Assembly (NCBI GenBank): GCA_001443485.1
Contig: LDXQ01000005.1
Span: forward strand, 1-51,580
Reading direction: 5' to 3'
From: Candidatus Sysuimicrobiota bacterium CSP1-3
Lineage (GTDB): Bacteria; Sysuimicrobiota; Sysuimicrobiia; Sysuimicrobiales; Humicultoraceae
DNA length: 51,580 nt
Each line of letters opens with the position of its first letter. Position 1 is the first letter of the stretch. Positions 1,298-28,201 of this stretch are shown here, piece by piece. The notes under the pieces were generated by a model. The model was not told where the DNA came from. It worked only from the letters and a program-made list of their open reading frames with translations, and made no database searches. Position numbers and translations under genes: made by a program.

Positions 1298-3294
1298 CTA
1301 CCCGGCGGCGACCCGCTGCGTCGTGCGGTGGGCCATCGCCATGATGGCGATCATCGGATTCACACTCGGCGCGGAAGGGAAAACGCTCGCGTCCGCGACA
1401 TACAGCCCGCGGACGCCGTAGACCTGTCCGGAGGGATCCACCGCGGCCCGCCGGGGGTCCGATCCCATGGGCAGGCCGCCCATCAGGTGCGCGCTAAAGA
1501 GCGCGAGCGCATTGGGCCGGATGCCCGCCGCGCGCACGCCCCGTGCGAAGCGGGTGGCCGCGTCGGGCTCATCCCGCCGCACCGCGACCCGCCGCGTGTG
1601 CAGGCTGTAGATCTCCCGCGCCCCGGCGGCGAGGTGGATCTTTCCCATCTCTTCGAGTCCCCGGAGCATGAGCCGCTGGTCCTCCGGGTGCAGCCGGTAG
1701 TGCACCACCGGGTCACCCCGCGCCGTCACCGTCACCCGACCCCATCGGTAATCCCGCACGAGGACGATAAACGCCGCCAGGTGGGCCAGGCGGGCCATCT
1801 GGCGCTTGTGATCCTCGCCGCTCGCCCAGGGGATGGCCATCGCGGCCAGACCCGGATGCGCCGGGGCGACCTCGATGGTGAACCCATGCGTTCCGGTCAG
1901 CCGCGCAAACTCGGTGCAGGCCGCGGTCTGCGGATGGCCCGACCAGAGCTCGATGGGGTGCGCGTAGATACCCACCCCCGCCGTCACCGGGTGGAGCCGG
2001 AGGCGCTGCCCGACCATCGCGTTGCCGATGCCGGACCGGAGCAGGAGGGCCGGCGAGAAGATTGCGCCGCCGGCCAGGACGACCGTCGTGCAGCGAACCG
2101 CCACACGGCGGCGCCGTCCGGAGGCGGGATCGGTCGCCGTGGCTTCGACGCCAATCACCTGTCCGCCGCGCGTGAGGATGCGCTCGGCCGCGCAGTGGAC
2201 AAGAACCTGCGCTCCCGCCGCGTACGCATCCTGCACGTAGGTCACCAGCGCATCTTGCTTGGCCCTGTGAGGGCAACCGTAGGCGCAGGGTCCGCAGTCC
2301 CCGCAGCCCTGCACATTGCGCGGCACCGTCTCCACACGGTAGCCCAGGGCCCGCGCGCCGTCCCAGAGCGCCTGATTGTTGGGATTGCGGTGACTCTCCA
2401 GCGTATTGACGTTGAGCCGCCGCTCGACGGCATCGAGGGCATCACGAAACTCTACCCCCGTGAGCCCGTCGATGCCGTGGTCGCGCTCCCACTCCTCCAG
2501 GACATCGGCCGGCGGGCGCAGGCTCGTGCACCAGTTCACAACGGTGCTGCCCCCCAGGCAGGTCGCCGCGAGCAGGCCAAACGCGTTGTCCGCCGTGGCA
2601 AACAGCCCTTTGCCCAGGGAGAGACCCTGCAGCATCTCGTACTCGTCCCCGGGTAGTCGCGCTGGCTGTAGTACCCGCCCCGCTCCAGCAGCAGCACCTG
2701 CCGGCCCGCCTGGCTCAGGACGGCGGCGGCGACGCTCCCGCCCGCGCCCGATCCGATGACGCAGATCTCCGTGGCGATCTGTGTGTCAGAGGTGACGGCC
2801 AGCGGCGTGATCGCCCTCGGCACCCCGCGCGGTGGCACCGGCGTCCCCGGAAACCCGATGGCCGGCCAGTTGGGATTCGCTTCGTCCGCCGCGTGCGCGG
2901 CATAGAAGAGGAAGGTGAAGATCTGCTTGAGGGCCTGGAATGCCATCCGCTTGAGAGGCAGGCGGCTCCGCGCCCACGAGCGAAGGTAGGCCGCGGCCTC
3001 ACCCGGCGACATCCGGAAGACCGCCTTCGGCCGCCCGGTGAGGAGGAGATTGACCAGTGGGTTACTCATGAGCCGCAGCAGCAGGCGCAGTTGTGCCCGG
3101 AGGTGTGCGGGAGCTTCTTCGAGCCCCGCTTCAACCAGCGGCGGCAGGTTGAGATCAGAGCCGCGCCGGTGGAGGAATGCGCGCCAGGCCGGTTCATCGC
3201 GGACGGCGGCCGGGGGGTCTCCCTGCTCCACGACCTCGGGTACGAGGGCGTCGCACAGCGCCTGGAGGGTCTTCCGCTCTCGGTCAGTGAGCAT
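1298..3294 (-). pseudogene. GMC-family FAD oxidoreductase (long-chain alcohol oxidase-like, with an N-terminal extension), interrupted by a 1-nt frameshift near 2647-2653.
   Basis: ORF 2536..3423(-) carries 'MLTDRERKTLQALCDAL...' and the FAD fold 'ICVIGSGAGGSVAAAVLSQAGRQVLLLERGGYYSQRDYPG', then turns to nonsense. ORF 1298..2635(-) continues in another frame with 'DEYEMLQGLSLGKG...CLGGSTVVNW...' and a GMC C-terminal domain. The junction lies in a CCCCGGG run. Confidence 0.7.
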
Positions 3295-3494
3295 TCGGCG
3301 GCGCCAGGATGTGGTCCCGCAGCCTGAGGGCGCTCGAGTACTTTCCCGCTTACTCTGGCTTCTCCTCCGACCGTCTCGCCCGCGCACCCGGGACAGGAGT
3401 TGACCGCCCACCTCCAGAACCACGCCAGACGTATCCCGCGGGCACGGACAACGTGACGCATTTCAGATCAGCCAGGGTGGAGGGCAGGATCGCA

Positions 3495-3737
3495 ATGGGG
3501 AAGGTGCAGGTCGAGATCGAGTATTGCGCGGAGTGAGGGTACGAAGGACACGCCGCCCGTGTGGCGGAGGAGATCCTCACGGAGCACGCGGAACGTCTGC
3601 AGGCGGTGGTGATCGTCCCGTCGTCCGGCGGCAGATTCGTGGTGAAGGCCGGGGGAAAGAAGGTCTTCAGCAAAGCGGATGCCGGCCGCTTCCCCCGCGA
3701 GGGAGAGGTCGCGGCCGCGCTGGCCAAAACCCTCTAG
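3495..3737 (+). CDS. Rdx family (SelW/SelT/SelH-like) selenoprotein, 80 aa, with in-frame UGA (Sec) at codon 14 in a C-A-E-U motif.
   Basis: ATG 3495 follows a GGAGGG RBS. The reading is 'MGKVQVEIEYCAE' + TGA(3534-3536) + 66 further sense codons 'GYEGHAARVAEEIL...VPSSGGRFVVKAGGKKVFSKADAGRFPREGEV...' to TAG 3735-3737. Rdx hallmarks (IxYCxxC/U, GG-F-V, G-FP) are present. GC3 stays high after the TGA. Confidence 0.8.
3545..3577 (+). promoter_or_regulatory. Candidate bacterial SECIS hairpin downstream of the UGA.
   Basis: The lower stem is AGGA(3545-3548)/TCCT(3574-3577). The upper stem is CCGCC(3553-3557)/GGCGG(3563-3567). The apical loop is CGTGT, contains GU and starts 21 nt after the UGA. 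Confidence 0.45.
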
Positions 3738-3759: not shown

Positions 3760-3834
3760 GCGGGCGTAGCTCAGCGGTAGAGCATCGGCTTCCCAAGCCG
3801 AGGGTCGTGGGTTCAAATCCCATCGCCCGCTCCA
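3760..3834 (+). tRNA. tRNA-Gly (anticodon CCC) with an encoded CCA end.
   Basis: Cloverleaf read by eye: acceptor GCGGGCG/CGCCCGC, D arm GCTC-AGCGGTA-GAGC, anticodon stem TCGGC/GCCGA with loop TTCCCAA, T arm GTGGG-TTCAAAT-CCCAT, then TCCA. Confidence 0.9.
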
Positions 3835-3847: not shown

Positions 3848-3875
3848 GGGGATACGGGTTTCAGCCCGTGTCCCC
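3848..3875 (+). terminator. Stem-loop terminator after tRNA-Gly.
   Basis: GGGGATACGGG-tttcag-CCCGTGTCCCC forms an 11-bp stem with one G.U pair, followed by TTCTTCGTT. Confidence 0.55.
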
Positions 3876-11244: not shown

Positions 11245-11850
11245 ATGCTCGCTGACTATGACAGGATTGACCGTGACACCCGCGAGTTGACCCGTCTGAT
11301 GTCGGAGGCTCGCCGCGCCCATGTCAGGACAGCCATAGGAACGGACATGTCGATGTCCCCGCAAGGGCGTGAGGCGATTGCGCTGACCGGGCGCGTCGTT
11401 GGGCCAGGTACGTTTGCGGCGATGCCCGATGGAGAGGCTGCCATCGCGCCCGTTGAGGGGACAGCGGAGGGGACAGTCGTCGTAGAGCACACCATGGACA
11501 ATCTCGGCCTCCTTGATGCACCAATCCGGATGGAGGTGCGAGCAGGCCGGGTGATTGGCATCCCGGGAGGAGCGTCTGCGGCGAGCCTACAAGCTTTGTT
11601 AGCCTCAGCAGACGAGAACGCACGGAATATCGCTGAGTTCGCCATTGGCACAAACGATCAGGCTCGGCTGATTGGGTCGATGATGGAGGACAAGAAGTAT
11701 CGAGGATCTGTGCACGTTGGCCTCGGCAACAATCATGTCATTGGAGGGACGGTGGTGAGCTCGCTCCATTTGGATGGTCTTGTATTGAATCCGACCGTGG
11801 AACTGGATGGCAGGGTTATCGTGGAGAATGGACGGCTGCTCATCGGCTAA
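11245..11850 (+). CDS. M29 (aminopeptidase T/AmpS-like) family protein, C-terminal half only; probably a truncated remnant.
   Basis: '...AEFAIGTNDQARL...MEDKKYRGSVHVGLGNN...GGTVVSSLHLDG' matches the C-terminal metal-binding region of M29 peptidases. It is about half the usual length. Confidence 0.5.
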   Translation: MLADYDRIDRDTRELTRLMSEARRAHVRTAIGTDMSMSPQGREAIALTGRVVGPGTFAAMPDGEAAIAPVEGTAEGTVVVEHTMDNLGLLDAPIRMEVRAGRVIGIPGGASAASLQALLASADENARNIAEFAIGTNDQARLIGSMMEDKKYRGSVHVGLGNNHVIGGTVVSSLHLDGLVLNPTVELDGRVIVENGRLLIG

Positions 11851-14299: not shown

Positions 14300-15364
14300 T
14301 CATCGCTCCCCTGTTTCCAGGTATCGTTGGAGCGCGGCCCCGCGCAGCCCGGCGATCCCCAGGCGTTCCACCGTCCGGCCGGATGCCCAGTAATCGACGC
14401 CGCGAGCGATGGAGGCGAGCGTGTTCAGCGCATCGTTAATCGGCGTGGGCACGCCGAGCAGCCGGCCCAGCGACGACATGAAGACGCTGCCGTAGGGGAT
14501 GTCCTCATCGATGTAGCGGAAGTGTATGCAATCCCGCAGGCCCATCGGCTCGCCAGGGCTGCGGTAGATTGCGGGGCTGCTCCCGAACTCACGATAGAGG
14601 TCGTCAAGCGAGATCGGCATTAGGCCTGCGGCTGCCTGTAGCGCCATGCGTTCGCGGTCGTGCGCGTCCATCGCCCGCAGCACGGCCTCCGTCATGCCCT
14701 CATTCATCAATGAGAGGGCACCGTCGGCGCGCTCGATGGCGGCGTAGTTCAGGACCATGGGCGCCGGATGGATGATGAAGTTGGGATTGTTCAGACCGGT
14801 GTCCAGCACGTTCTTCGCCTGCAGTGTGCGCAGCAGTGCGCCAAAGTCGCCAAGCCGTTCAACCAGTTCCGGGCTATTGCGCGCGGGAAACGCTGCCGTC
14901 CGCACTGTCCACGGGAAGCGGATCTTGACCTGGGCGGGGCCGATCATGCGAGCCGATTGGGGCAAGGTGGCCGTTTCACCAAGCAGCGGCATCCGGGTGA
15001 GTCCGCCCTCACGCCAGATGCGCGCGACCTCCAGACTGCCGGCCGATCCAGACGCCAGGAGGACGACATGATCGACGCGGACGCGCGGGGCCAGCAGGTG
15101 GGAGAGAGCAGCGTGGGCGTTGGCGACCGTGAAGATCAATAGGAACGCCGCTCGGCCCGCATCGGCGATGTCAGAGGTCAGGTGGGCGATGGGAACGAAT
15201 CCATCGCCCCGGTCGCCGGTGATCTCCAACCCGCCGCGGTCCCGGATCGCCTCCAGGCGCTCTGGCGCGCGGCTGAATAGCGTGACCTCGAGGCCGTGGC
15301 GGGCAAGCACGGCCGCCGCGGCACATCCTCCGGCACCCGCCCCGAGAATTGCGACGTCACCCAT
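14300..15364 (-). CDS. NAD/NADP octopine/nopaline (opine) dehydrogenase family protein, paralog 1.
   Basis: It has the Rossmann motif 'ILGAGAGGCAAA'. The helical domain carries 'NNPNFIIHPAPMVLNYAAIE' and 'YIDEDIPYG'. Confidence 0.8.
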   Translation of the reverse strand: MGDVAILGAGAGGCAAAAVLARHGLEVTLFSRAPERLEAIRDRGGLEITGDRGDGFVPIAHLTSDIADAGRAAFLLIFTVANAHAALSHLLAPRVRVDHVVLLASGSAGSLEVARIWREGGLTRMPLLGETATLPQSARMIGPAQVKIRFPWTVRTAAFPARNSPELVERLGDFGALLRTLQAKNVLDTGLNNPNFIIHPAPMVLNYAAIERADGALSLMNEGMTEAVLRAMDAHDRERMALQAAAGLMPISLDDLYREFGSSPAIYRSPGEPMGLRDCIHFRYIDEDIPYGSVFMSSLGRLLGVPTPINDALNTLASIARGVDYWASGRTVERLGIAGLRGAALQRYLETGER

Positions 15365-15405
15365 TCGAAGATGTCCAGCTATGTGCTAGTCCACGCTTGG
15401 TGCTC

Positions 15406-15420
15406 ATTAAGAAACTTAAT
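15406..15420. promoter_or_regulatory. Candidate operator palindrome in the divergent ODH/iclR intergenic region.
   Basis: ATTAAG-AAA-CTTAAT is a perfect inverted repeat in an AT-rich spacer, about 40 nt upstream of the minus-strand operon start. Confidence 0.3.
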
Positions 15421-15561
15421 TTCTCCCTGATGACCTGATTCTACCTCACGGGAGCGCCGCCGTCACGAGGTACATGGCAGGCGTGGCGGGGCCCAGGTAC
15501 TTGACTCCACTAGCCCCATTGTCTAGCGTATAAGTATCCGATTGAGAACCAATATTCCTAT

Positions 15562-16377
15562 ATGAGAAACGCCGAGTACCCTGTCATCCGGTCGGTACAG
15601 AAGGCGCTCCGCATCCTTCGCGCGTTTGACAACCAGCGGCCAGAGTTCGGTCTGACCGAACTCAGCAATCATTGTGGCTTCCCCAAATCCGTGACCCACA
15701 AACTAGTGCGCACGCTGGCCGACGCCGGGTTTCTCGAGCAGGATCAGGCCACCCGCAGATACCGCATCGGGCCGGTGATCCTGACGGTGGCGGGCACCTA
15801 CCTGGGTACGAATCCGCTCATCCGTGAAGGCACGGCAGTGCTGCACCGACTCGCCGGCACCACGGGCCACACCGCCACGCTCGGGGTGCTGGACCGATCG
15901 GAGGTGCTCTACATCGCCGCCGTAGAGGGGACGCAGGCCGTGAAGGCCAGCGCACGCGTCGGCGATCGCCGTCCTCTGCACGCCACGGCGACGGGCAAGG
16001 TCCTCCTGTCCGGTCTCTCCGAGACCGAGGTAGACAGGCTGCTCGGCCCCGGCCCGCTGCCAGCTCTGACGCGCTCCACGATTACCAATCCTGCTGTCTT
16101 GAAGCAAGAACTGGACGCCGTCCGCAAGGCCGGCGTGGCGTACAACCTGCGGGAGCGCAGCGAGGAGGCATCCGCGATCGCCGCACCGGTGTACGACCAC
16201 ACACGGCGCATCGCCGCCGCGGTCAGCGTAGCATTTCCCGCCACGGTGCAGGATCAGCGCGTCCTGGACGAGCTTACGGCCGGTATGAAGGCACACGCCC
16301 AGGAACTCTCCCGCCGGCTAGGCGCGCCCGATCAGGGTGACGGCCAGGTCGTCACGGCAGGATCATGGAGTCAGTAG
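15562..16377 (+). CDS. IclR-family transcriptional regulator.
   Basis: It has an N-terminal wHTH ('SVQKALRILRAF...LTELSNHCGFPKSVTHKLVRTL') and a C-terminal IclR effector domain. Confidence 0.85.
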   Translation: MRNAEYPVIRSVQKALRILRAFDNQRPEFGLTELSNHCGFPKSVTHKLVRTLADAGFLEQDQATRRYRIGPVILTVAGTYLGTNPLIREGTAVLHRLAGTTGHTATLGVLDRSEVLYIAAVEGTQAVKASARVGDRRPLHATATGKVLLSGLSETEVDRLLGPGPLPALTRSTITNPAVLKQELDAVRKAGVAYNLRERSEEASAIAAPVYDHTRRIAAAVSVAFPATVQDQRVLDELTAGMKAHAQELSRRLGAPDQGDGQVVTAGSWSQ

Positions 16378-16381
16378 ACCG

Positions 16382-17794
16382 GTGAGCACGCATGCGTCCG
16401 ACACCGAAGCGTTGGTGCAGTTCATCGCCACCACGCGCCTGGAACGCCTCAGTGCGGGGGTCGTCGAGCAGGCGAACCGCTGCGTGCTGGACGCCGTGGG
16501 GTGCGCGGTCGCCGGGTCTGTCACCGACATCGGCGTGCGGATCGGGGACTTGGTGGTGAGTGCGGGTGGCGCGCCGGAGGCCACCGTGCTCGGCCGGCGA
16601 GGGATCCGCGTCCCTGCGTCAGCGGCGGCGCTGGCCAATGGCACGGCGACCAATGCGCTTGATTTCGACGACACGCTGCTCGGGCATCCAGGGGCGACGG
16701 TCATCCCGACCGTCCTTGCCCTGGCCGAGGCTTCACAGAATCCGGGGGCGGCGATGCTGGCCGCCGTCGTTGTCGGGTATGAAGTTTGCGCGCGGCTCGT
16801 TGCCTGCCTCTCACCTGTGGGCGGGCGGTTCACGCGCATTTGGGACACCGCCACGCTGCAGACCTTCGGAGCCGCATCCGCGGCTGCATCGCTGCTCGGG
16901 CTCGCGGAGTCCCAGATCCACGCAGCCCTGGGCATCGCCGCCGCCACCGCGCCGCTGGTACGCGTGCGAAAGTCCGTGCAGCACACCACCCATCGGCCGA
17001 TGCTAAAGTCGGCCTGGGGATGGGCGGCAGAGGCGGGGGTGCGGGCGGCCCTGCTGGCTCGCGCCGGGGTCACCGCGCAGGCACACGTCCTCGACGGCGA
17101 CCTTCCGGTCTGGGAACGCGAGGCGGCGCCGCCGTTCGGACTGCGCAGCCTCACCGACCGGTTGGGGGAGAGCTTCCTCATCGAACAGCTCGAGTTCAAA
17201 CCGTATCCCTGCTGCCGGTTCATCCACCCGGTCCTGGACGCGTTGCGGGAGGCCGTCGGGGACGGGCGCATCCCCACCGCTGAGATCGCCGAGGTGCGGA
17301 TCGCGACGTTCGCGCTGCTCGGCGATCCCTATCACACGGCCGTTCCGCCGACGAGCGTCTCCGACGCGCAGTTCAGCACGCCGTTCTGCGCTGCGGCGCT
17401 GCTGGCGGATGGCGGGCTGCGGCCGCACCGCTTCACGCCGGACGGCATCCGGGATCCGGCCGTAACCGCGCTGGCGGGACGGGTGAAGATCACGCGAGCA
17501 GAGGAATACGAGCGCCGGTTTCCCCGGCAGTTCGGTGCCGCGGTGCGGGTGATCACCACGGACGGCCGCCGGGCGGAGGCGCGGGTCGATCATCCGCGCG
17601 GCGGACCGGACCGCCCCCTGTCCACGACGGAGCTCGTCGACAAGTTCCAGACGCTGGCGACACAGCGCTATCCAGAAGACGACGCCACGGCTTTTGCGCG
17701 GCGGGCGCTCGCGCTGGAACGCGAGCCCGACGTCCGCAGGCTGGTCGATGGCCTGGCGTCATCGGAGCGAATTTCGACACCAAGCAGGAGGTGA
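16382..17794 (+). CDS. MmgE/PrpD-family protein (2-methylcitrate-dehydratase-like fold).
   Basis: '...LDAVGCAVAGS...ANGTATNALDFDDT...HPGATVIP' is typical of PrpD-family proteins. I prefer GTG 16382, just after the iclR stop, over the ATG at 16337. Confidence 0.75.
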   Translation: MSTHASDTEALVQFIATTRLERLSAGVVEQANRCVLDAVGCAVAGSVTDIGVRIGDLVVSAGGAPEATVLGRRGIRVPASAAALANGTATNALDFDDTLLGHPGATVIPTVLALAEASQNPGAAMLAAVVVGYEVCARLVACLSPVGGRFTRIWDTATLQTFGAASAAASLLGLAESQIHAALGIAAATAPLVRVRKSVQHTTHRPMLKSAWGWAAEAGVRAALLARAGVTAQAHVLDGDLPVWEREAAPPFGLRSLTDRLGESFLIEQLEFKPYPCCRFIHPVLDALREAVGDGRIPTAEIAEVRIATFALLGDPYHTAVPPTSVSDAQFSTPFCAAALLADGGLRPHRFTPDGIRDPAVTALAGRVKITRAEEYERRFPRQFGAAVRVITTDGRRAEARVDHPRGGPDRPLSTTELVDKFQTLATQRYPEDDATAFARRALALEREPDVRRLVDGLASSERISTPSRR

Positions 17795-17799
17795 GAGAT

Positions 17800-19461
17800 A
17801 TGAGGCATGACACGAGGGTATGGGCCCGCGGGATGGCGATCCTGCTGGCCGCGGCACTGGTGCTTGCCGTCTCGGGAGGGGCGATCGGGGCGCCCGCGCC
17901 CGCCAGCCGCTCGCCCGTGAAGGTGCTGCTCGTCGCCCCGGCGGTGACCTACGACCCACTGCGTTGGGAGAGCACGTTGCTAGCGGCCAACGCCTGGAAG
18001 CAGCTGGGGATTGACGTGGAGGTTCGGCCGTTTGCGGACTTTGCGTCACTGACCGCACGCCATTCCAGGGAGCCGTTTGACTTCGATGCCTTCGTCTCCG
18101 GATACGTCGGACGGCCGGAGCGGCTCGATCCCGACGCCCTGCTGTACGGGCCGTTCCACAGCAAGGGCATCTTCGACAACGGGCCGAACTACTTCGGCTA
18201 CGCGAATCCGGAATACGACCGCATCGTCGAGTCCCAGCGCAAGACGGTGGACCTCAAGCAACGCCAGGCCCTGGTGTACAAGGCTCAGGAAATCCTGGCC
18301 AAGGATGCACCGGAGATCACGTTGTTCCACCGCCAGGAGATGTTCGCGTACAACACCAGGCGTTTCACCGGCATGGTGCCCATGGTGGGGCGCGGGCTGT
18401 GGAACCCCTGGACGGTGCTGGAGGCGAAACCGATTGGGAGCGACAAGACCTTCCGCATGGGCTGGGCGACCGACATTGACGGCACCAACCCGCTCAGCAT
18501 CACTAGCGCGGTCGAGTCCCTGCGGCTGGTCTACGACTTCCTGGCGCGCGTCGACAAGGACGGCCAGCCGATTCCCTGGGCGGCGGAGTCCTGGCGAAAG
18601 GTCACCGACACCCAGGTCGACGTCACCCTGCGCCAGGGGATGACCTTCCACGACGGCCGGCCCGTCACCGTGGAGGACGTGGTATTCAGCTTCGAGTTCA
18701 TCCGGCAGAATGGGACGGCCCCGTACTTCAGCGGGGCCCTGGAGCCCATCAGGAGCGTGCGCGCCGTCAACGACCGCGTCATCCGCTTCGTGCTGCACTA
18801 CCCGTACCCGCCGCTGCTCATGGTGACCTTCACCCAGATCCCTATCCTGCCAAAGCACATCTGGCAGGATGTGGTGAGCCGGGAACGGGTGGAGACGCCG
18901 GCGAAGTGGAACAACCCGAACCCCATCGGCAGCGGACCTTATCAGTTCGGCCACTGGCGGCGCGGCGAGGAGCTGCTACTGCGGCGGTATGCGCGGCACT
19001 TCCATCCCCCACAGGCCGGGGCGTTCCTGGCGGTGAAGTACGCCAGTGCCGATGCTGTGTTCCAGGCCATCGTCAAGGGCGAGGTGGACATCCCCGACCG
19101 CAGCATCACTTCGCTGCAGATCGAGGAGGCGAAGCGGGCGAGCAACGTGAAGCTGGTCTCGCTGCCGGACTTCGGGGTATTCTACATGGGCTTCAACCTG
19201 CGCCGGCCGCCGTTCAACAACCCGAAGTTCCGCGACGCGATCAAGCACACCTATGACTGGAAGACGATCGTGGAAGCGGCACTGGGCGGGTTCGGCCAGC
19301 CGGGCACTGGCATGATCGCGCTGGTGAACAAGTTCTGGCACAACCCGGCGTGGGAGCAGTGGCTGAAGACAGACTACAGGTTCGATCTGGCGCTGGCGCG
19401 GCAGATGCTGCAGCAGGCAGGATACACCTGGGACGCCCAGGGCCGGCTGCTGCATCCATAG
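17800..19461 (+). CDS. ABC substrate-binding protein, family 5 (peptide/opine/nickel type).
   Basis: It has AGGAGG upstream, a signal peptide, a length of about 550 aa and the downstream DppBCDF-type genes. Confidence 0.8.
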   Translation: MRHDTRVWARGMAILLAAALVLAVSGGAIGAPAPASRSPVKVLLVAPAVTYDPLRWESTLLAANAWKQLGIDVEVRPFADFASLTARHSREPFDFDAFVSGYVGRPERLDPDALLYGPFHSKGIFDNGPNYFGYANPEYDRIVESQRKTVDLKQRQALVYKAQEILAKDAPEITLFHRQEMFAYNTRRFTGMVPMVGRGLWNPWTVLEAKPIGSDKTFRMGWATDIDGTNPLSITSAVESLRLVYDFLARVDKDGQPIPWAAESWRKVTDTQVDVTLRQGMTFHDGRPVTVEDVVFSFEFIRQNGTAPYFSGALEPIRSVRAVNDRVIRFVLHYPYPPLLMVTFTQIPILPKHIWQDVVSRERVETPAKWNNPNPIGSGPYQFGHWRRGEELLLRRYARHFHPPQAGAFLAVKYASADAVFQAIVKGEVDIPDRSITSLQIEEAKRASNVKLVSLPDFGVFYMGFNLRRPPFNNPKFRDAIKHTYDWKTIVEAALGGFGQPGTGMIALVNKFWHNPAWEQWLKTDYRFDLALARQMLQQAGYTWDAQGRLLHP

Positions 19462-19468
19462 AGATGTC

Positions 19469-20146
19469 ATGCCGCACCTGAGCTATTTCGTCCCGACGTC
19501 TGGCTATGATCCTCAGGAGCGCGAGCGGCGGCTGGCGGTGATGCGGCCGCTGCTCGCGCCGGGGTTTACCATCGACATGCTGACGCTGAGCAACACACCG
19601 GAGTTCCTGGATCAGGCCGCGGACTTCGACGCCGCCGGCCGTGCGGCCCGCGCGGCCCTGGGTGCGGTGGGCCCCGACATCTGCGATGTCATCATCTCCG
19701 GCGGGGCGCTGGATCCGGGATTACGCGAACTGCGGGCGGCGGCGCGCGTCCCCATCGTCGGGCCGGGAGAGGTGTCGCTGTTCCTGGCCCGCCTCCTTGG
19801 ACGGCGGTTGAGCATCGTCACCGTGGACGAACACGCGGTGGCCGCAGCGAAACAGATGGTGGCGGAGATGAAGGACCGGCCGGAGGTGGTCTCCATCCGC
19901 TCTATGGCGACCCCGGTGCGGCAGATCGTCGCCGATCTGGAGCGCGGCCGGCAGGCCCTGCGCCGGGAAGCCACCGCCGCCGTGCAGGAGGACGGCGCCG
20001 ACGTGCTGTACCTCGGCTCCATGACCCTGCCCACGCTGGGGATCACTGAAGAACTGCAGCGCACGCTGCGGGTCCCGGTCATCGATCCGCTCGCCGTCGC
20101 GCTGCACGCCGCACAGGCCGTCGCGTTGGCGCTGCCGCCTCGCTAG
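19469..20146 (+). CDS. Asp/Glu/hydantoin racemase family protein.
   Basis: It is about 225 aa. 'VIISGGALDPGL...VPIVGPGE' and 'LYLGSMTL' match the PF01177-type two-lobe pattern. Confidence 0.65.
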   Translation: MPHLSYFVPTSGYDPQERERRLAVMRPLLAPGFTIDMLTLSNTPEFLDQAADFDAAGRAARAALGAVGPDICDVIISGGALDPGLRELRAAARVPIVGPGEVSLFLARLLGRRLSIVTVDEHAVAAAKQMVAEMKDRPEVVSIRSMATPVRQIVADLERGRQALRREATAAVQEDGADVLYLGSMTLPTLGITEELQRTLRVPVIDPLAVALHAAQAVALALPPR

Positions 20147-20206
20147 CCGGGCTTGTGGGGCTGGCGGGCGGGCCGGCGCGGATCACACACGGCAGAGGGG
20201 AGACGC

Positions 20207-21181
20207 GTGCGGGTCCGATATCTGCTTCGGCGCATCCTGCAGCTCGCTCTGACGATGTGGCTCGTCGCGACGATCGTCTTCCTCATGTTCCGCCTCATCC
20301 CTGGCGACCCGACGAGCACCCTCGTCGATCCCACGTTTCCGGCCAGCCTGCGCGCCGAGATCCTGCACCGGTTCGGGCTGGACCGGCCCCTGCATGAGCA
20401 ATACCTGACCTACCTGGCACGCGCGGTGCGCGGCGATTTCGGCTGGTCGTTCTACTACAACAGCCCGGTAGTGGAGATCGTCGGCGACATGATCATCAAC
20501 ACCCTGCTCCTGGCGCTGGCGACGTTCTTCCTCACCTACCTGTTTGGCATCCTGGGGGGCGTCGTACTCGCCTGGAAGCATGGTACGCCGGTGGATAGTG
20601 TGGGCTCGCTCGTGCCGCTGGTGTTCCGCGCCGCGCCGGTATTTTGGACGGGGATGCTGTTCCTGATGGTGTTCTCGTACCGCCTGGATTGGTTCCCGCA
20701 CGCCGGGATCCGCACCGCGGGCTACGCGGCCACGAACCTGTTCCAGAAGTACGTCAGTCTCGACTTCCTGTGGCACCTGCTGCTGCCGGCGGTCGTCTCC
20801 ACCCTCTACTACATGGGGCTGCCGATGCTGCTGGTGCGGAACGCCATGCTGGAGAACTTTGGCGAGGAGTACGTGGAGTTCGCCCGCGCGCGGGGGATGT
20901 CCGAGGCGCGCGTGATGTTCCGCCACGTGCTGCGCAACGCGCTGCTGCCCGTGGTCACCTCCGCTGCCGTCTTCCTGGGCCTCGCCCTGGGCGGACAGAT
21001 CGTGGTGGAGTACACGTTCTCCTGGCCGGGACTGGGCCGGGAGATCGTCATGGCCACCCAACGGCGGGACTACCCAGTGGCGCAGGCGATGTTCCTGCTG
21101 CTGGCTGTGGGCGTGGGCTTGATGAACCTGCTGGCGGACATGGTCTACGGCTACCTCGATCCGCGCGTGAGGCTGCAGTGA
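20207..21181 (+). CDS. ABC permease (DppB/OppB-like).
   Basis: The GTG start gives 'VRVRYLLRRILQL...', the canonical DppB N-terminus. It is a multi-TM protein. Confidence 0.8.
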   Translation: MRVRYLLRRILQLALTMWLVATIVFLMFRLIPGDPTSTLVDPTFPASLRAEILHRFGLDRPLHEQYLTYLARAVRGDFGWSFYYNSPVVEIVGDMIINTLLLALATFFLTYLFGILGGVVLAWKHGTPVDSVGSLVPLVFRAAPVFWTGMLFLMVFSYRLDWFPHAGIRTAGYAATNLFQKYVSLDFLWHLLLPAVVSTLYYMGLPMLLVRNAMLENFGEEYVEFARARGMSEARVMFRHVLRNALLPVVTSAAVFLGLALGGQIVVEYTFSWPGLGREIVMATQRRDYPVAQAMFLLLAVGVGLMNLLADMVYGYLDPRVRLQ

Positions 21182-22098
21182 GCCGCAACCTCAGTGAAGG
21201 TTTGACGCTGGCCGCGGCGACGGGCCCATCATGGCGGACGCGCCTGGGCATCCTCCGGCGGATCCTCTTCCGGGATCTGTCCACGGCGGTGGGGATCACC
21301 GTGATTGTGCTCTTCGTGCTGGTGGCGCTGCTGGCGCCGGTGCTGATGACGGACGACCCATGGGCGATCAACCGCCGACCCAACGGGACTATCGCCCGGC
21401 TCGACCCGCCTTCGCGCGCACACTGGCTGGGCACGACCGACCTCGGTCGGGACATCTACAGCCAGGTAGTGGTAGGCAGCCGCGCGGCGCTGTTGGTCGG
21501 CTTCCTGGCCGCGCTGATGACCACCGTGGTTGGCACCAGTGTGGCGGTCATCGCCGGCTACTTCGGCGGGTGGGTGGACGACCTGCTGATGCGCGTGGTC
21601 GACTTCGCTTACGCCGTGCCCTTCGTGCCGTTCGTGATCATTCTCGTCTCGCTACTGAAGCCGTCACTCGCGAACGTCATCATCGCCATCGCCCTGCTGT
21701 ACTGGCGCTCGTCGGCACGCGTCATCCGCGCCCAGGTTCTCTCCCTGAGGGAGCGGCCCTACATCAAGGCGGCGCGCGTGGCCGGGGCGGGACCGTGGCG
21801 CATCATCTACCATCACATCACGCCCAACATCCTGCCGCTGGCGATGCTCTACATGGCGATCGGTGTGGGGTGGGCGATCATCACCGAGTCCAGCGTGAGC
21901 TTCCTCGGCCTGGGTGACCCACTGGTGATCAGCTGGGGCAGCATGCTGAACCTGGCGTTCACCACCGGGGCCATGCAGCGCGCCTGGTGGTGGGTGCTGC
22001 CGCCGGGGTTCAGCATCATCCTGCTCGTCGTCGCCACGTTCCTGGTGGGACGCAGCGTCGAGGAGTACGCCAACCCCCGGCTGCGGGGTGAGGTCTGA
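21178..22098 (+). CDS. ABC permease (DppC/OppC-like).
   Basis: GTG 21178 overlaps the upstream stop. The upstream 178 codons of track ORF 20644..22098 overlap dppB out of frame and are not coding. Confidence 0.8.
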   Translation: MSRNLSEGLTLAAATGPSWRTRLGILRRILFRDLSTAVGITVIVLFVLVALLAPVLMTDDPWAINRRPNGTIARLDPPSRAHWLGTTDLGRDIYSQVVVGSRAALLVGFLAALMTTVVGTSVAVIAGYFGGWVDDLLMRVVDFAYAVPFVPFVIILVSLLKPSLANVIIAIALLYWRSSARVIRAQVLSLRERPYIKAARVAGAGPWRIIYHHITPNILPLAMLYMAIGVGWAIITESSVSFLGLGDPLVISWGSMLNLAFTTGAMQRAWWWVLPPGFSIILLVVATFLVGRSVEEYANPRLRGEV

Positions 22099-23117
22099 TG
22101 CTGCTGCAGATCGAGGATCTCGTGGTCTCCTACCGCACCCGCGCCGGGCTGGTGCGGGCGGTGGACGGCGTGAGCCTTTCCATCGCGGCGGGACAGTCGG
22201 TCGGGCTGGTCGGGGAATCGGGGTGCGGCAAGACCACCGTCACCCGCGCGCTGCTGCGCATCCTGCCGCCAAATGGCTTCATCGAGCGCGGCCGCGTGCT
22301 GCTGGAGGGCGTCGATCTGACGAGGCTGTCCGCCTCGGAGATGCGCCGGGTCCGCTGGCGGCGGATCGCCATGGTGCCGCAGAGTGCCATGAATGCCCTG
22401 AACCCGGTGCTGCGGGTGGGAGATCAACTCGTGGAGACGATCCGCATCCACGAGCACGTCGACGCCGCGGCAGCGTGGCGCCGCGCAGAGGACCTGTTCG
22501 AGCGCGTCGGGATCGAACGCCGCCGGCTGTACGACTACCCGCACCAGTTCAGCGGGGGGATGCGGCAGCGCGTGGCGATCGCGATGGCCATTGCGCTGCA
22601 GCCGGCCCTGCTCATCGCCGACGAACCCACCACCGCGCTCGACGTGCTGGTGCAGGACCGCATTCTGAACCTGCTGGAGCAGCTGCGGGCGGACCTGGGC
22701 CTGGCCTTCCTCTATATTACGCACGACGTGCCGGTGGTCGCGGAACTGTGCGACGCCGTGGCGGTGATGTACGCGGGCAAGATCGTGGAGTTCGGACCGC
22801 TGGCGCAGGTCTTCGGCAGCCCGTCGCATCCATACACGATGGGGCTGCTGCGGGCCTCGCCGAAACCCGCCGCCGAGCAGAGTGAACTGATCTCCATCCC
22901 CGGAGCGCCGCCGAACCTGGTGGCCCCGCCCCGTGGCTGCCGGTTTGCGGAACGCTGCCCGTTCGCCGACGATCGCTGCCACCTGGCCGAACCGCCCCTC
23001 GAGGCGGTGGCGCCGGGGCATCTCGCCGCCTGCCACTTCGCCGCCGACGCCCCACGCATGCGTCAGACCATGGCCACAGGCGACGCCTGGGCCCGCGCCT
23101 TCGCCGGGACGCCATGA
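22098..23117 (+). CDS. Oligo/dipeptide ABC ATP-binding protein (DppD/OppD-like).
   Basis: Walker A 'GESGCGKTT' and signature 'FSGGMRQR' are present, with a C-terminal Cys-rich oligopeptide-ABC tail. Confidence 0.85.
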
Positions 23118-24127
23118 ATCCCATCGTCGTGTTCGACGCGGTGACCAGGATCTTCCAGGTGCGCGGGTCCACGGAGGCCGGGACCGCGCCGGGGGCACGG
23201 ATCGTGCAGGCCCTCGACCGCGTCTCGTTTGCCGTGCGGGAGGGCGAGATCCTCGGCCTGGCGGGGGAGAGCGGCTCGGGCAAGAGCACGATCGCGGAAC
23301 TGATGGCCGCCCTGCAGACGCCCACCAACGGACGCGTGCTGTTCAACGGAGAGGACCTCGCCGGGCTGCGCGGGGCGGGCCGCCGGGAGTTCCACCGCCG
23401 CGTGCAGATGATCTTCCAGGATCCGTACGAGAGCATCAACCCGCAGCACCTGATCCGCTGGTGGGTGGAAGAACCGCTGGAGATCCACGGGATCGGCGCG
23501 CGCGCCGACCGCCTGGAGCGGGTGCGGCGGGCGCTGGCGCAGGCGGAGCTGCGTCCGCCCGACGCGTTCCTGAACCGGTACCCCCACCAGCTCAGCGGGG
23601 GGCAGCGGCAGCGCGTGGCCATCGCCCGGGCTATCGTGCTGGAGCCGAGCCTGCTGGTGGCCGACGAGCCGGTGTCGATGCTCGATGTCTCGGTGCGGGC
23701 CGGCATCCTGCGGCTGCTCCGGCGGCTCCGCGATGAGTTGGACCTGACGATCCTCTACATCTCGCACGATCTGTCCACCGTTCGCTACATTGCCGACCGC
23801 GTGGCCATCCTCTACCAGGGGAAGCTGGTGGAGATCGGCGGCACCGACGCGGTGATGCGCACGCCGCTGCACCCGTACACGCAGGCGCTCATGTCCGCCG
23901 TGCCGACGCTGGTGGTGGCGGGACCGCGGCGCCCGCGGGTGCTGCTCCCGGCCGGGAACGGATCGGCGGCCACCACGCCCTCGTGCCGGTTCGCCGCGCG
24001 CTGCCCGCATGCCATGAACGTCTGCCGGCAGCGCGAGCCCCTGCTCGTGGAACTGGCGCCCGGCCATGCCGTCGCCTGCTTCCTCCACTCGGAGGCCGCG
24101 GTGCCGCAGCCGGGCGGACGGGCGTGA
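23114..24127 (+). CDS. Oligo/dipeptide ABC ATP-binding protein (DppF/OppF-like).
   Basis: Walker A 'GESGSGKST' and signature 'LSGGQRQR' are present, with the C-terminal 'CRFAARCP' tail. Confidence 0.85.
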   Translation: MNPIVVFDAVTRIFQVRGSTEAGTAPGARIVQALDRVSFAVREGEILGLAGESGSGKSTIAELMAALQTPTNGRVLFNGEDLAGLRGAGRREFHRRVQMIFQDPYESINPQHLIRWWVEEPLEIHGIGARADRLERVRRALAQAELRPPDAFLNRYPHQLSGGQRQRVAIARAIVLEPSLLVADEPVSMLDVSVRAGILRLLRRLRDELDLTILYISHDLSTVRYIADRVAILYQGKLVEIGGTDAVMRTPLHPYTQALMSAVPTLVVAGPRRPRVLLPAGNGSAATTPSCRFAARCPHAMNVCRQREPLLVELAPGHAVACFLHSEAAVPQPGGRA

Positions 24128-24132
24128 GCGAG

Positions 24133-25056
24133 ATGAAGTTCGGGATCAAACTCCCCAACTGCGCGGGCGTCATCTGCGATCCCGACCTGGCGCGTCCCGA
24201 GCACATCGACGCCATCGCGAAGACGGCGGAGGCGCTGGGGTACGATTCCGTCTGGCTGCATGACCATCTGGCGACGCCGGATGAGTTGCGGCCGCTGTCC
24301 CAGCCCGACTTCTACGAGCCGCTGATGGTGATGGGCCGTCTCGCCGCGCTCACCTCCCGCCTCCGCCTGGGGGTGGCCACGGTCATCCTGCCGCTGCGCG
24401 ACCCGGTGCTAGTTGCGAAGCAGGTCGCTACCGTGGACGGCTTCGCGCCGGGCCGCGTCATTCTGGGCGTGGGAGCCGGGCGCTACGAAGACGAGTTCCT
24501 GTCCCTGGGCAGCGACGCCTATCCGGCGCGTGGCAGGATCACCGATGAGTACATCCGGATCATCCGCGCGCTGTGGCGCGACGATGAGGTCACCTTCAGC
24601 GGCACGTACCGCACGCTGGCGCGGGCCAAGGTCTACCCCAAGCCACAGACGCCCCCGCCCATCTGGATTGGGGGCAACTCTGAGGCGGCCATCCGCCGCG
24701 CCGCGCGCGTGGGCGACGGATGGGTGCCGGCCGCGCTCACCGTGGAGGAGGTGGCCGCCGGACGCCGGCAGCTGGAGGAGACCGCGCGCCGGCACGACAG
24801 AGATCCTGGCCGCCTGGAGATCGGTCTGTCGCTGACCGTGGAACTGACGCGCCCCGGCCGGGAGACCGCGCGGTCCCTGCACGGTCATCCCAGCAGCAAG
24901 CGCGTCGCTGGCGAACCCGAGCAGGTCATCGAACGGCTGCAGGAGTACGGCGGGGCTGGCGTGTCCACCTTCCTCCTCTCGTTCAGCGCCCGCGACGTCG
25001 CAGAAACCGTCGAGCACATGGCGGCGTTCGCCGAGCAGATTGTCCAACTCCAGTGA
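24133..25056 (+). CDS. LLM-class (luciferase-like) flavin/F420-dependent oxidoreductase, copy 1.
   Basis: 'MKFGIKLPN...GYDSVWLHDHL' and the rest of the fold are typical of luciferase-like monooxygenase proteins. Confidence 0.75.
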   Translation: MKFGIKLPNCAGVICDPDLARPEHIDAIAKTAEALGYDSVWLHDHLATPDELRPLSQPDFYEPLMVMGRLAALTSRLRLGVATVILPLRDPVLVAKQVATVDGFAPGRVILGVGAGRYEDEFLSLGSDAYPARGRITDEYIRIIRALWRDDEVTFSGTYRTLARAKVYPKPQTPPPIWIGGNSEAAIRRAARVGDGWVPAALTVEEVAAGRRQLEETARRHDRDPGRLEIGLSLTVELTRPGRETARSLHGHPSSKRVAGEPEQVIERLQEYGGAGVSTFLLSFSARDVAETVEHMAAFAEQIVQLQ

Positions 25057-25072
25057 GAAGGAGCGTCCTGCC

Positions 25073-26104
25073 ATGACAACTCTGACCGCGGAGGCCACCG
25101 CGCTGCACCGGGAGGCCATCATCATTGACGGCCGGGATCCCACCCACCTCATGTACCGCCTGACCTATGACGAGAAGCCCGTCTATCTCGATGTGCTGCG
25201 CGAGGGTGGTGTGACGGCGCCCGTCGTCGACGCGGTCTGGATCGAGGACGACTTCACCGAGGCCGCCAGAGGACTGGCTTCCTGGCACCGCCGCGCCGTC
25301 GCGAGCAACGGGCGGGCGCGGATCGCGCTGCGCAGCGAGGACATCCGCGCGGCCAAGGCGGCGGGGCTGATCGCGTTCGTGCTGAGCGCCCAGTCTTCGG
25401 CGGCCGTGGAAGGGGATTTCTCGCTCGTGGAGATGCTGCAGCGGATGGGCCTGCGCGTGATGCAGCTGACCTACCAGCACCGCAGCTTGGCCGGAGACGG
25501 GTGTGGGGAGGCCACAGACGGGGGACTGAGCCGGTTCGGACAGGACCTCGTCAGGGAGATGTGCCGCGTGGGGATCGTCGTGGACCTCTCGCACGCCAGC
25601 GACCGCACCGTGTTGGAGGCCGCGGAGGCGGCCACGAAACCGGTCATCCTGTCCCACACCAACGCTCGGGCCCTGTGCGACACGCGGCGCAACGCCAGCG
25701 ACGCGATGATCCGTGCCGTGGCCGCCACGGGCGGGGTCATCGGGGTGTCCGCGTACTCTGACATCATCGTGCCCAAGGGTGGCACAACCGGGACGACGAT
25801 CGAACAGATGCTGTCCCACGTTGATTACCTTTGTGGTCTGGTCGGCGAGGACCACGTGGCCATCGGCCTGGACATCGGAGAGGGCCGAAACGAGCTGGAG
25901 GTCGGCATCCTGCACGCGCGCATCCCGGGACTAGGTGCGGGTCCTAAGTACCGCTACGTCGGTGAACTGACCTCGCGCGCCAATCTGCCGGCGCTCACCG
26001 CGGCGATGGCGGCCAGAGGCTACGCGCCGGCGCGCATCAGGAAGGTGCTCGGGCTCAACTTCCTGCGGGTCTTCGAGACTGTCTGGGTGGGGGCGGAGCG
26101 GTGA
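25073..26104 (+). CDS. M19 (renal/membrane dipeptidase) family protein.
   Basis: 'VDLSHASDRT', 'PVILSHTNARALCDTRRNASD' and 'GGVIGV' match the M19 core. The N-terminal motif reads 'IIDGRDP' instead of the usual DGH-x-D. Confidence 0.7.
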   Translation: MTTLTAEATALHREAIIIDGRDPTHLMYRLTYDEKPVYLDVLREGGVTAPVVDAVWIEDDFTEAARGLASWHRRAVASNGRARIALRSEDIRAAKAAGLIAFVLSAQSSAAVEGDFSLVEMLQRMGLRVMQLTYQHRSLAGDGCGEATDGGLSRFGQDLVREMCRVGIVVDLSHASDRTVLEAAEAATKPVILSHTNARALCDTRRNASDAMIRAVAATGGVIGVSAYSDIIVPKGGTTGTTIEQMLSHVDYLCGLVGEDHVAIGLDIGEGRNELEVGILHARIPGLGAGPKYRYVGELTSRANLPALTAAMAARGYAPARIRKVLGLNFLRVFETVWVGAER

Positions 26105-26132
26105 CACCGCCCGCCGGCCGGGCAGGGGCACG

Positions 26133-27176
26133 GTGCGCGCGGTCGTAGTCGGCGGCGGCGCCATCGGTTGCGCGGCCACAGCGCTGCTCGCGGCCCAGGG
26201 TGTGGACGTCGTCCTGCTCACCCGCAGCGCGGAGCGGCGCCAGGAGCTGCGCATGGCGCAGCGCATCGAACTGCGCGGGGATGTGACCGCGAGCGGCGGT
26301 CCAGTTCGAGTAGAAGGGACGTTTGAAGCCACCGCCGGGGCGGACGTGATCTTCGTCTGCGTGCAGTCGGCCGGCCACGAAGCCGTCGCCGCCTCGCTTG
26401 CCCCGCACCTGCAATCCGGACAGGCCGTGCTGATCTTCTCCGGCCTGGCCGGTTCACTCCTGTTCGCCCGTGCGTGGCGGCATCGTCCAGACATCCTCCT
26501 AGGTGAGACGGCGACGCCGCCGTGCTCGGCGCGCTTGGTCGGCCCTGGCGTGGTGCAGGTGCGGATGCGCACACGGCTGCGCGCCGCCGCGTTTCCGGCA
26601 TGCCGCACGGTTGAGTTGCTGGCCCGTGTGCCGGCGGGGATCCCGCTGCATCCGGCCATCCATGTGCTGGACGTCGCCCTGCACCACCCGAACCTCATCG
26701 TCCACCCCCTGCCGATGCTCCTCAACTATGCGGCGATCGAACGCACGGACGGCGCGCTCTCCTTGATGAACGAAGGCATGACGGCGCGGATCGTAGCTGC
26801 GATGGACGCTCACGATGCGGAGCGCGTGGCGGTCCTCCGCGCCCTTGGCGTGGACGCGCTGCCGCTGGATGCGGTGTACCGAGAGTTTGGCGGCAGCCCA
26901 GAGGTCTATCGCCAACCGGGCGAACCCATGGGCATCCGGGATCGGATTCACTGGCGGTACGTCGATGAGGACGTGCCGTACGGCATTGTGCTCATAGCAT
27001 CTGTGGGGCGGCTGGTAGATGTGCCCACGCCAATCTCCGACGCGGTGATCACGCTGGCCTCCGTCGTCCGCGGCGTGGACTTCTGGGCCCAGGGGCGGAC
27101 AGCGGAGCGCTTGGGCCTAGCCGGACTCAGTGCCGGTCGGCTGCGCACTTACCTAGTGGAAGGGACCATGGCATGA
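26133..27176 (+). CDS. NAD/NADP opine dehydrogenase family protein, paralog 2.
   Basis: It has a GTG start and the Rossmann motif 'VVGGGAIGCAA'. The C-terminal half aligns closely by eye with 14300..15364 ('LSLMNEGMT...YREFG.SP..YR.PGEPMG.RD.IH.RY.DED.PYG'). Confidence 0.8.
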   Translation: MRAVVVGGGAIGCAATALLAAQGVDVVLLTRSAERRQELRMAQRIELRGDVTASGGPVRVEGTFEATAGADVIFVCVQSAGHEAVAASLAPHLQSGQAVLIFSGLAGSLLFARAWRHRPDILLGETATPPCSARLVGPGVVQVRMRTRLRAAAFPACRTVELLARVPAGIPLHPAIHVLDVALHHPNLIVHPLPMLLNYAAIERTDGALSLMNEGMTARIVAAMDAHDAERVAVLRALGVDALPLDAVYREFGGSPEVYRQPGEPMGIRDRIHWRYVDEDVPYGIVLIASVGRLVDVPTPISDAVITLASVVRGVDFWAQGRTAERLGLAGLSAGRLRTYLVEGTMA

Positions 27177-28201
27177 GATTCAGTTTCTCCGCCCGGCCGG
27201 CCGATGACGTCGCCACGACGGTGGCGACGATACAGTTCGCCGAATCCCTGGGATTTCACGGCGCGTGGTACCCGGATCAGACGTTCTTCCGAGAGGTCTT
27301 CAGCGTGCTTGCCGTCTGCGCGGGGGCGACCCGCCGGCTCACCCTGGGGGCGGCGGTCGTGAATCCCTATACGCGGCATCCTGCGGTGATCGCGCGGGGG
27401 GCGGCCACGGTCAGCGAAATTGCCCGCGGCCGGTTCCGGCTGGTGCTGGGGGCCGGGAACCGGGGCGAACTGCTCACGCCGCTGGGGATTCAACAGCACG
27501 AACCAGCCCTGCGTCTCGCTGAAGCCGCCACCGTCATCCGTCGGCTGCTGGCCGGGGAGACCGTACAGTTTGACGGCCGCACGGTGCGGGTGCAGGGTGC
27601 GGCGCTGGATTTCCAGGCACGGTATCCCCTGCCGGTTCTCTTTGCCGGCCGCGGGCCGCGGGTGCTCGAAGCCGCAGGGGCGGTGGCGGATGGGGTAGTG
27701 ATCGGTGCGCTCGTCTCGCCGGAGGGGTTGCAGTACGCCCTGCGTCACGTCCGAATGGGTGCGGAGCGGGCAGGACGTAGTCTGGATGGGTTTCAGATTA
27801 TCAGCTGGGCGACGTGGGTCCCGGGGCGGGGGATCCACGAGGCCGTGGACGCCATCCGGCCGGCGATCGCGCACATCGTCGGAGGGGCTCCGCCTGAGGT
27901 CCTGCGGGCCATCGAGCCTGATCAGACGCTCATCGCCCGCATCAAGGCCCGCTACTGGGAAGGCGGCGCGGCCGAGGCGGCGGCGGATGTCACAGACGAC
28001 CTGGCGCGCAAGCTCGCGCTACTCGGAAGCGCGGAGGACTGCGCGCAAGCGGTGGCGCGGCTTGAGGCGGCGGGTGTGGACGAGGTAGCCATCCTACTGC
28101 CCGGTCGGGGCACCCACGGCGGCGCCGTCACGCCACCCGAGGAGCAGCGCCGCCTGCTGCGCGCCTTCGCCGAGACGGTGACGCCGCGATTCGGGTCATG
28201 A
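27173..28201 (+). CDS. LLM-class flavin/F420-dependent oxidoreductase, copy 2.
   Basis: The ATGA overlap couples it to the upstream gene. 'ESLGFHGAWYPDQ' and the rest of the fold match luciferase-like proteins. Confidence 0.75.
   Translation: MRFSFSARPADDVATTVATIQFAESLGFHGAWYPDQTFFREVFSVLAVCAGATRRLTLGAAVVNPYTRHPAVIARGAATVSEIARGRFRLVLGAGNRGELLTPLGIQQHEPALRLAEAATVIRRLLAGETVQFDGRTVRVQGAALDFQARYPLPVLFAGRGPRVLEAAGAVADGVVIGALVSPEGLQYALRHVRMGAERAGRSLDGFQIISWATWVPGRGIHEAVDAIRPAIAHIVGGAPPEVLRAIEPDQTLIARIKARYWEGGAAEAAADVTDDLARKLALLGSAEDCAQAVARLEAAGVDEVAILLPGRGTHGGAVTPPEEQRRLLRAFAETVTPRFGS

Follow-up and report, generated by a model that had tools for sequence, protein, structure and literature searches.

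Selenoproteins of the CxxU SelW-like type, with a SECIS element located inside the open reading frame, have been known in bacteria since the first prokaryotic selenoproteome surveys of 2004-2005, and dedicated Pfam and NCBIfam models exist for them. The decoding signal is familiar from the Escherichia coli fdhF and fdnG genes, in which the SECIS is a SelB-binding apical stem-loop with G and U in its loop, found at a short fixed distance 3' of the UGA; it lies inside the coding sequence and constrains the encoded peptide. Mammalian selenoprotein W (SELENOW) shares its family, its CxxU motif and the predicted thioredoxin-like fold with the protein described here. Its SECIS is of the eukaryotic type, located in the 3' UTR and read by SBP2/eEFSec, whereas the element proposed below would follow the bacterial SelB mode and lies within the coding frame, beginning 15 nt 3' of the UGA. 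The CxxU SelW-like proteins are more abundant than any other bacterial selenoprotein family in the Sargasso Sea and GOS data (PMC1088965, PMC2398784), with 48 Sec and 7 Cys forms in the Sargasso Sea (PMC1088965) and 427 Sec and 56 Cys forms in GOS (PMC2398784).

The stretch of DNA analysed here (51,580 nucleotides, or 51.6 kb; the window) very probably contains a real SelW-like gene of this kind, in which a UGA codon with a SECIS minihelix 3' of it encodes selenocysteine and the active site is Cys11-Ala-Glu-Sec14 (Table 1). The gene resembles bacterial SelW-like genes (PF10262; TIGR02174; NF041051) in the size of the product (about 75-85 aa), in the position of the CxxU after the first strand, in the GG-F-V and G-FP landmarks and in the succession of a UGA and an in-ORF hairpin. 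It differs from them in belonging to an uncultured, high-GC lineage (67.6% G+C in the window), with nearest MAG relatives labelled Armatimonadota, and in a minihelix that is unusually frozen in its clade, with 16 identical nucleotides preserved down to 24% protein identity. What is new here is a further member of a long-known selenoprotein family, from a poorly studied lineage, together with a correction of its annotation; a sister clade with a UxxU motif is the sole unusual by-product.

Table 1. Features at and around the SelW-like gene (window coordinates)
Feature	Position	Strand	Remarks
Shine-Dalgarno-like GGAGGG	3479..3484	+	10 nt 5' of ATG 3495; read off the sequence
SelW-like (Rdx family) gene, predicted selenoprotein	3495..3737	+	80 codons plus TAG; in-frame UGA is codon 14
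Redox motif Cys11-Ala-Glu-Sec14 (TGC GCG GAG TGA)	3525..3536	+	TGA 3534-3536 is the predicted selenocysteine codon
Putative bacterial SECIS minihelix GCCGCCCGUGUGGCGG	3552..3567	+	starts 15 nt 3' of the UGA; encodes Ala-Ala-Arg-Val-Ala
58-aa GTG-start ORF	3561..3737	+	annotation artefact replacing the full gene; GTG inside the hairpin
tRNA-Gly(CCC)	3760..3834	+	22 nt after the SelW-like stop codon; ARAGORN and Rfam
Intrinsic-terminator-like hairpin	3848..3875	+	12 bp and T-rich tail; likely end of the SelW-tRNA transcription unit

A single frame runs from ATG 3495 to TAG 3735-3737, and its translation is interrupted only by TGA 3534-3536, which directly follows MGKVQVEIEYCAE, sits within a C-A-E-TGA motif and leaves 66 sense codons before the TAG. 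An earlier interpretation of this DNA, made from its letters and ORFs (the sequence-only reading), had proposed that the frame continues through the TGA over these 66 codons, and its 80-residue read-through product is identical to the translation obtained here. Its remark that the preference for G or C at third codon positions persists beyond the TGA also holds, with a GC3 of 0.83 on the 3' side and 0.92 on the 5' side. The upstream stretch 3309-3494, read in the same frame, gives values of 0.61/0.63/0.71 and is not coding-like. The start codon was fixed at ATG 3495 by the alignment of homologs together with this upstream fading of the coding signal. As ORFs are listed, the same region appears as a 75-aa ORF terminating at TGA 3534-3536, followed by the 58-aa ORF that begins with GTG 3561.

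For family searches, Cys was substituted for the TGA codon in the 80-aa product. The Pfam Rdx model (PF10262) is matched with an expectation value of 1.5e-18 and 67.2 bits (cutoff 22.6), over residues 5-74 of the protein and positions 1-70 of the 74 in the model, so both sides of the TGA are needed for the match; the 66 residues 3' of the TGA reach 43 bits on their own (5e-11). The product also scores 56.4 bits against NCBIfam TIGR02174 (CXXU_selWTH; cutoff 34.2), and the assignment of the read-through protein to the Rdx (SelW/SelT/SelH) family by the sequence-only reading is borne out by both models. The equivalog NF041051 (SelTWH_Campy) gives 83.5 bits, slightly below its cutoff of 88; the gene is a close relative of that equivalog and is not filed under it.

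Six solved bacterial Rdx structures with Cys forms of the motif are matched as well, with expectation values from 1.5e-9 to 6e-6, and are homologous over residues 1-72: 2P0G ('Selenoprotein W-related protein'), 3DEX (SAV_2001), 2FA8 (Atu0228), 2OKA, 2OBK and 2OJL. In the alignments, the CxxC of 2P0G, 3DEX and 2FA8 occupies exactly the columns of C-A-E-TGA, and in the window gene the C11-A-E-TGA14 motif stands right after the N-terminal beta strand, where a CxxC or CxxU belongs in this family. These proteins have Cys where the window protein would have Sec, and their C-termini extend about 25 residues further. In helix 1 they carry W-L, whereas the window protein carries R-V, a pair encoded by the loop of the putative SECIS. 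From homology to the solved Rdx structures only, a thioredoxin-like beta-alpha-beta-beta-beta-alpha fold may be predicted for the product.

The set of homologs was assembled from the DNA of 18 close database relatives and 12 MAG loci, in which the upstream sequence was re-read. It contains 19 distinct close homologs, which share 59-97% protein identity and come from at least 10 MAGs and many metagenomes. All 19 retain TGA at the position of codon 14, and in every one of them the TGA is preceded by an in-frame (V/I)x(I)E(Y)CAE strand, whose I, E, Y, C, A and E residues are invariant or nearly so. The codons for these residues vary synonymously (ATC/ATT, GAG/GAA, TAC/TAT, TGC/TGT, GCG/GCC), which indicates that the 13 codons 5' of the TGA are translated in this frame. 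Purifying selection accompanied by synonymous variation is observed on both flanks in 19/19 sequences, so that the gene does not end at the TGA in its relatives.

The sequence-only reading had asked whether Cys or Sec occupies this position in homologs, and both are represented. Besides the 19 close homologs, at least eight distant Rdx-like genes (24-35% identical) have the TGA; in two Chloroflexota homologs (L025 and L026; 38-39% identity) TGC takes its place, and the PDB homologs have CxxC. UGA and Cys thus alternate in the Sec/Cys manner that a selenoprotein family should show, and the in-frame UGA 3534-3536 most likely encodes selenocysteine. A wider search, with the 66 residues 3' of the TGA against 1.84 billion cluster representatives, returned 81 relatives, including about 45 N-terminally truncated calls, five entries with 'CxxW' and about 19 full-length CxxC proteins. 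The Sec/Cys pattern among these relatives agrees with the excess of Sec over Cys forms reported for SelW-like proteins (PMC2398784, PMC1088965).

By the description in PMC1088965, a bacterial SECIS is a stem-loop that follows closely on the UGA and has G in a small apical loop; a 5-6 bp GC stem with the loop CGUGU is found at this position. Two registers can be drawn. In the first, the stem CCGCC/GGCGG (3553-3557 / 3563-3567) closes the loop CGUGU (3558-3562), with loop onset 21 nt after the UGA; in the second, which is near-isoenergetic, the stem CGCCGC/GUGGCG (3551-3556 / 3561-3566) closes the loop CCGU. The fold energies of GCCGCCCGUGUGGCGG across the two registers range from -8.8 to -9.8 kcal/mol. 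The first register explains the invariance of all 16 nucleotides, and reaches 6-7 bp where a C follows GGCGG.

The 16-mer is strikingly well preserved. It is invariant, synonymous sites included, in every TGA form among the 19 distinct close homologs, and codons +6 to +10 (GCC GCC CGT GTG GCG; 3552-3566) are each represented by one codon in 19/19, though they are 4- to 6-fold degenerate. Elsewhere in the 19-sequence alignment, the degenerate codons of invariant residues vary synonymously in 18 cases out of 18, with two or three codons each; the contrast between five frozen codons of five in the minihelix and none of 18 outside it corresponds to 1/33649 in Fisher's exact test. The minihelix is absent from the TGC homologs L025 and L026. 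Judged by this codon comparison, the hairpin is under RNA-level selection.

The GC-rich hairpin described in the sequence-only reading survives in part. Its GU-containing loop, 21 nt after the UGA, belongs to the 16 conserved nucleotides; the 33-nt stem drawn for it, from 3545 to 3577, is not conserved, as its lower part (AGGA/UCCU) is not maintained across 26 TGA-bearing sequences. When the apical helix was constrained in the same 26 sequences, pairing between the flanks of the minihelix equalled that of shuffled flanks (mean z = 0.03). Single-sequence folds of 3534-3600 and 3520-3640 are no better than those of shuffles (z = -0.71 and -1.05, respectively), and the MFE structures of both segments do not include the conserved hairpin; the hairpin is thus supported by comparison and not by thermodynamics. 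RNAalifold found double changes in 0/6 stem pairs, an absence of compensatory covariation that is due to the invariance of every stem position. In Rfam 15, the segment 3400-3760 has zero matches from any family, even at E<=10, and the tRNA is the sole Rfam match both at the gathering threshold and at E<=10. Compared with the fdhF and fdnG elements of E. coli, the window minihelix is alike in its apical stem-loop, its G/U loop, its position within the ORF and its constraint on the peptide, and different in its sequence, in that a bulged U is not evident, and in having zero matches to Rfam or covariance models.

The distribution of the minihelix was followed beyond the close clade by a metagenome scan that used the DNA motif alone, with a 5' flank (R) chosen so that all close homologs were excluded. 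At least 120 loci with the 16-mer were detected, and in at least eight of them a long open frame contains a TGA 15 or 18 nt ahead of the 16-mer. These eight distant loci all encode CxxU proteins that are 24-35% identical to the window's protein, and four of the five that were tested pass the Pfam Rdx cutoff, so the association of TGA(CxxU) and minihelix, at a spacing of 15 or 18 nt, extends far past the close clade. The Ala-Ala-Arg-Val-Ala peptide is fixed by the minihelix in all eight of these genes also. Among the matches listed, those in which the 16-mer comes after a TGA are all Rdx genes and the remainder are chance matches, with none in unrelated selenoprotein families; the element therefore looks family-specific, and is not a demonstrated general SelB target. 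Within the window, a one-mismatch copy, GCCGCCCGTCTGGCGG, occurs at 42711-42726 (-); it lies antisense within a GNAT acetyltransferase gene, and the 45 nt 5' of it contain no TGA, which identifies it as a chance match.

The Pfam-supported genes of the window, 41 in number, end in TAG (22) or TGA (19), and none ends in TAA. With 19 of the 41 terminated by TGA, this codon is not reassigned, and an alternative genetic code is excluded. Pfam scans of the approximately 47 ORFs detected transporters, oxidoreductases, peptidases, a sigma factor and others; SelA, SelB and SelD are absent from these ORFs, a result that is uninformative either way for a fragment of 51.6 kb. tRNA-Sec is likewise absent from the window, whose sole tRNA is the tRNA-Gly(CCC) of Table 1.

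Several explanations that dispense with selenocysteine can be set against this evidence. Since the family has Cys forms, and since the frameshift in the adjacent GMC oxidoreductase gene points to some gene decay or sequence error in this region, the locus could be a pseudogene, derived from a CxxC Rdx gene by mutation of TGC (Cys) to TGA and left with a truncated 13-residue peptide. Such a history is extremely improbable, since the TGA is shared by 19 distinct homologs, the most divergent of them 59% identical, and by at least eight further genes with 24-35% identity; both flanks of the TGA are under purifying selection, and the synonymous-constrained hairpin accompanies the TGA forms only. 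Deep conservation of the TGA and selection on both flanks lead us to treat a nonsense-mutation pseudogene as excluded. It is exceedingly unlikely, too, that the real gene is the 58-aa ORF 3561-3737, with the 13 upstream codons as an untranslated leader, even if every gene caller gives it this form. That ORF is without residues 5-22 (beta strand 1 and the CxxC/U), which the Rdx model needs (67 vs 43 bits), and its GTG start falls inside the conserved hairpin. The Shine-Dalgarno sequence stands before ATG 3495 and not before the GTG, and the upstream codons are conserved in frame at the protein level, with synonymous changes.

Read-through or recoding of the UGA could also yield a selenium-free product with a standard amino acid at this position, either Trp or Gly by an alternative code, or Cys or Trp by near-cognate decoding. 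Five database relatives translated as CxxW would fit this explanation, but they are most simply understood as gene calls made under code 4 or 25. Recoding of this kind is very unlikely for a codon that serves as the stop in 19 of the window's 41 other genes, aligns with the catalytic Cys of relatives and not with Trp or Gly, and goes with a conserved hairpin at SECIS distance. A further alternative accepts the UGA as a recoded codon and assigns its decoding to some other element, with the 16-mer kept invariant by a need of the protein for Ala-Ala-Arg-Val-Ala or by a regulatory RNA. The absence of covariation and of Rfam matches is compatible with this, as is the similar sequence of helix 1 in Cys homologs (RAAWLAQEL); yet the synonymous sites are frozen solely within the 16-mer, the element is lost precisely where TGC replaces TGA, and its distance from the TGA is constant, at 15 or 18 nt, across very divergent genes. 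We consider a role unrelated to Sec insertion highly unlikely.

For a SelW-like selenoprotein decoded through the minihelix, a sequence of events can be proposed by analogy with established bacterial Sec decoding and with what is known of the Rdx family. Translation would begin at ATG 3495, and with UGA 3534-3536 in the ribosomal A site, the minihelix, with G and U in its loop, would be located 15 nt downstream. SelB, with GTP and Sec-tRNA(Sec), would bind the minihelix at 3552-3567 and insert selenocysteine in competition with release factor 2, after which the ribosome would continue to TAG 3735. The CxxU pair is predicted to lie where the first beta strand has ended and helix 1 begins. C11-x-x-U14 may then cycle between the selenolate/thiol and selenenylsulfide states, and the 80-residue protein would function as a small thiol-dependent oxidoreductase.

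The window gene itself is of the ordinary CxxU type. Outside the window, SelW-like genes at four related loci (L004:1611-1622, L005:758-769, L009:421-432 and L022:2172-2183) have two in-frame TGAs 9 nt apart, in the order Tyr-TGA-Ala-Glu-TGA, 5' of the 16-nt minihelix. The four loci come from four independent samples and fall into three distinct lineages with 84-86% DNA identity; in the sister sequences L020, L023 and L024 the first motif position is TGC. On balance, we favour the interpretation that a sister group within the window gene's clade turned the first Cys into TGA as well, giving U-A-E-U, a possible diselenide redox centre, with both UGAs served by one frozen 16-nt minihelix. If so, the clade would extend the family by a UxxU form and would show the reach of a single bacterial SECIS, with the helix 15 nt from one UGA and 24 nt from the other. 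Two recent reviews (2022, 2026) give SelW-like proteins only as CxxU with one Sec, and the UxxU form is absent from them (PMC9312934, PMC13188914).

The main value of the analysis is a correction of annotation. The sequence-only reading had predicted that ORF callers would miss or truncate the gene, and all 18 close database homologs (18/18) are indeed cut to calls of 57 or 58 aa, with the counterpart of GTG 3561 as start codon; the database entries found are fragments of this 58-residue type, without the active site. Across the family, roughly half of the representative clusters look N-terminally truncated, and a few seem to be translations under the wrong genetic code. The CxxW entries among the public protein clusters (P0027, P0041, P0065, P0092 and P0093) are full-length SelW-like proteins, in which gene calling under code 4 or 25 most likely turned the Sec TGA into Trp. 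The simple DNA signature TGA-N15/18-GCCGCCCGTGTGGCGG could be used to find this SelW-like subgroup in metagenomes. The gene would also imply that an uncultured high-GC lineage, with Armatimonadota MAGs as its nearest labelled relatives, uses selenocysteine; a literature search on Sec use in Armatimonadota gave nothing specific to that phylum.

The SelW-like gene and the tRNA-Gly(CCC) gene downstream are probably co-transcribed; a search for a terminator-like site between them found none. Their adjacency is also seen in L001, L002, L006, L007, L010 and L012, and is limited to the close clade. In L010 (913-1919), the tRNA is followed by a tyrosine integrase gene, a ParA/CbiA-like gene and a PLD/SNF2-helicase gene, which suggests that a mobile element has integrated at tRNA-Gly there. 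In the window, PNP_UDP_1, Bmp and ABC-transporter genes are found 3' of the tRNA instead; given this difference in gene content, the region 3' of the tRNA is variable. The neighbouring genes contain nothing that points to a specific substrate of the SelW-like protein.

Several genes elsewhere in the window appear to be interrupted. Upstream of the SelW-like gene, on the other strand, a GMC oxidoreductase gene (1301-3294, minus strand) is split across two frames: residues 1-235 of an intact 668-aa homolog from L007 align with 3294-2599 (frame -1), and residues 219-668 with 2650-1301 (frame -3). The split alignment indicates a frameshift near 2600-2650, and thus a pseudogene or an assembly error. 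Between 10400 and 11900 a long ORF is absent; a 201-aa ORF at 11245-11847 (+) matches only positions 184-348 of the 406 in Peptidase_M29, and could represent an aminopeptidase gene that has decayed or been frameshifted. The family-5 solute-binding protein ORF at 17284-19461 (+) stops at position 284 of the 368 in SBP_bac_5, just before an Asp/Glu racemase gene, and may be truncated.

The cluster at 14300-28201 contains two opine-dehydrogenase-like genes (Octopine_DH; 14300-15385 on the minus strand and 25971-27176 on the plus strand). It also includes genes for two luciferase-like monooxygenases, a dipeptide-type ABC transporter, an M19 dipeptidase, the Asp/Glu racemase, an MmgE/PrpD protein and an IclR regulator. 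Taken together, these genes look like an island for the catabolism of an opine-like or dipeptide-like compound.
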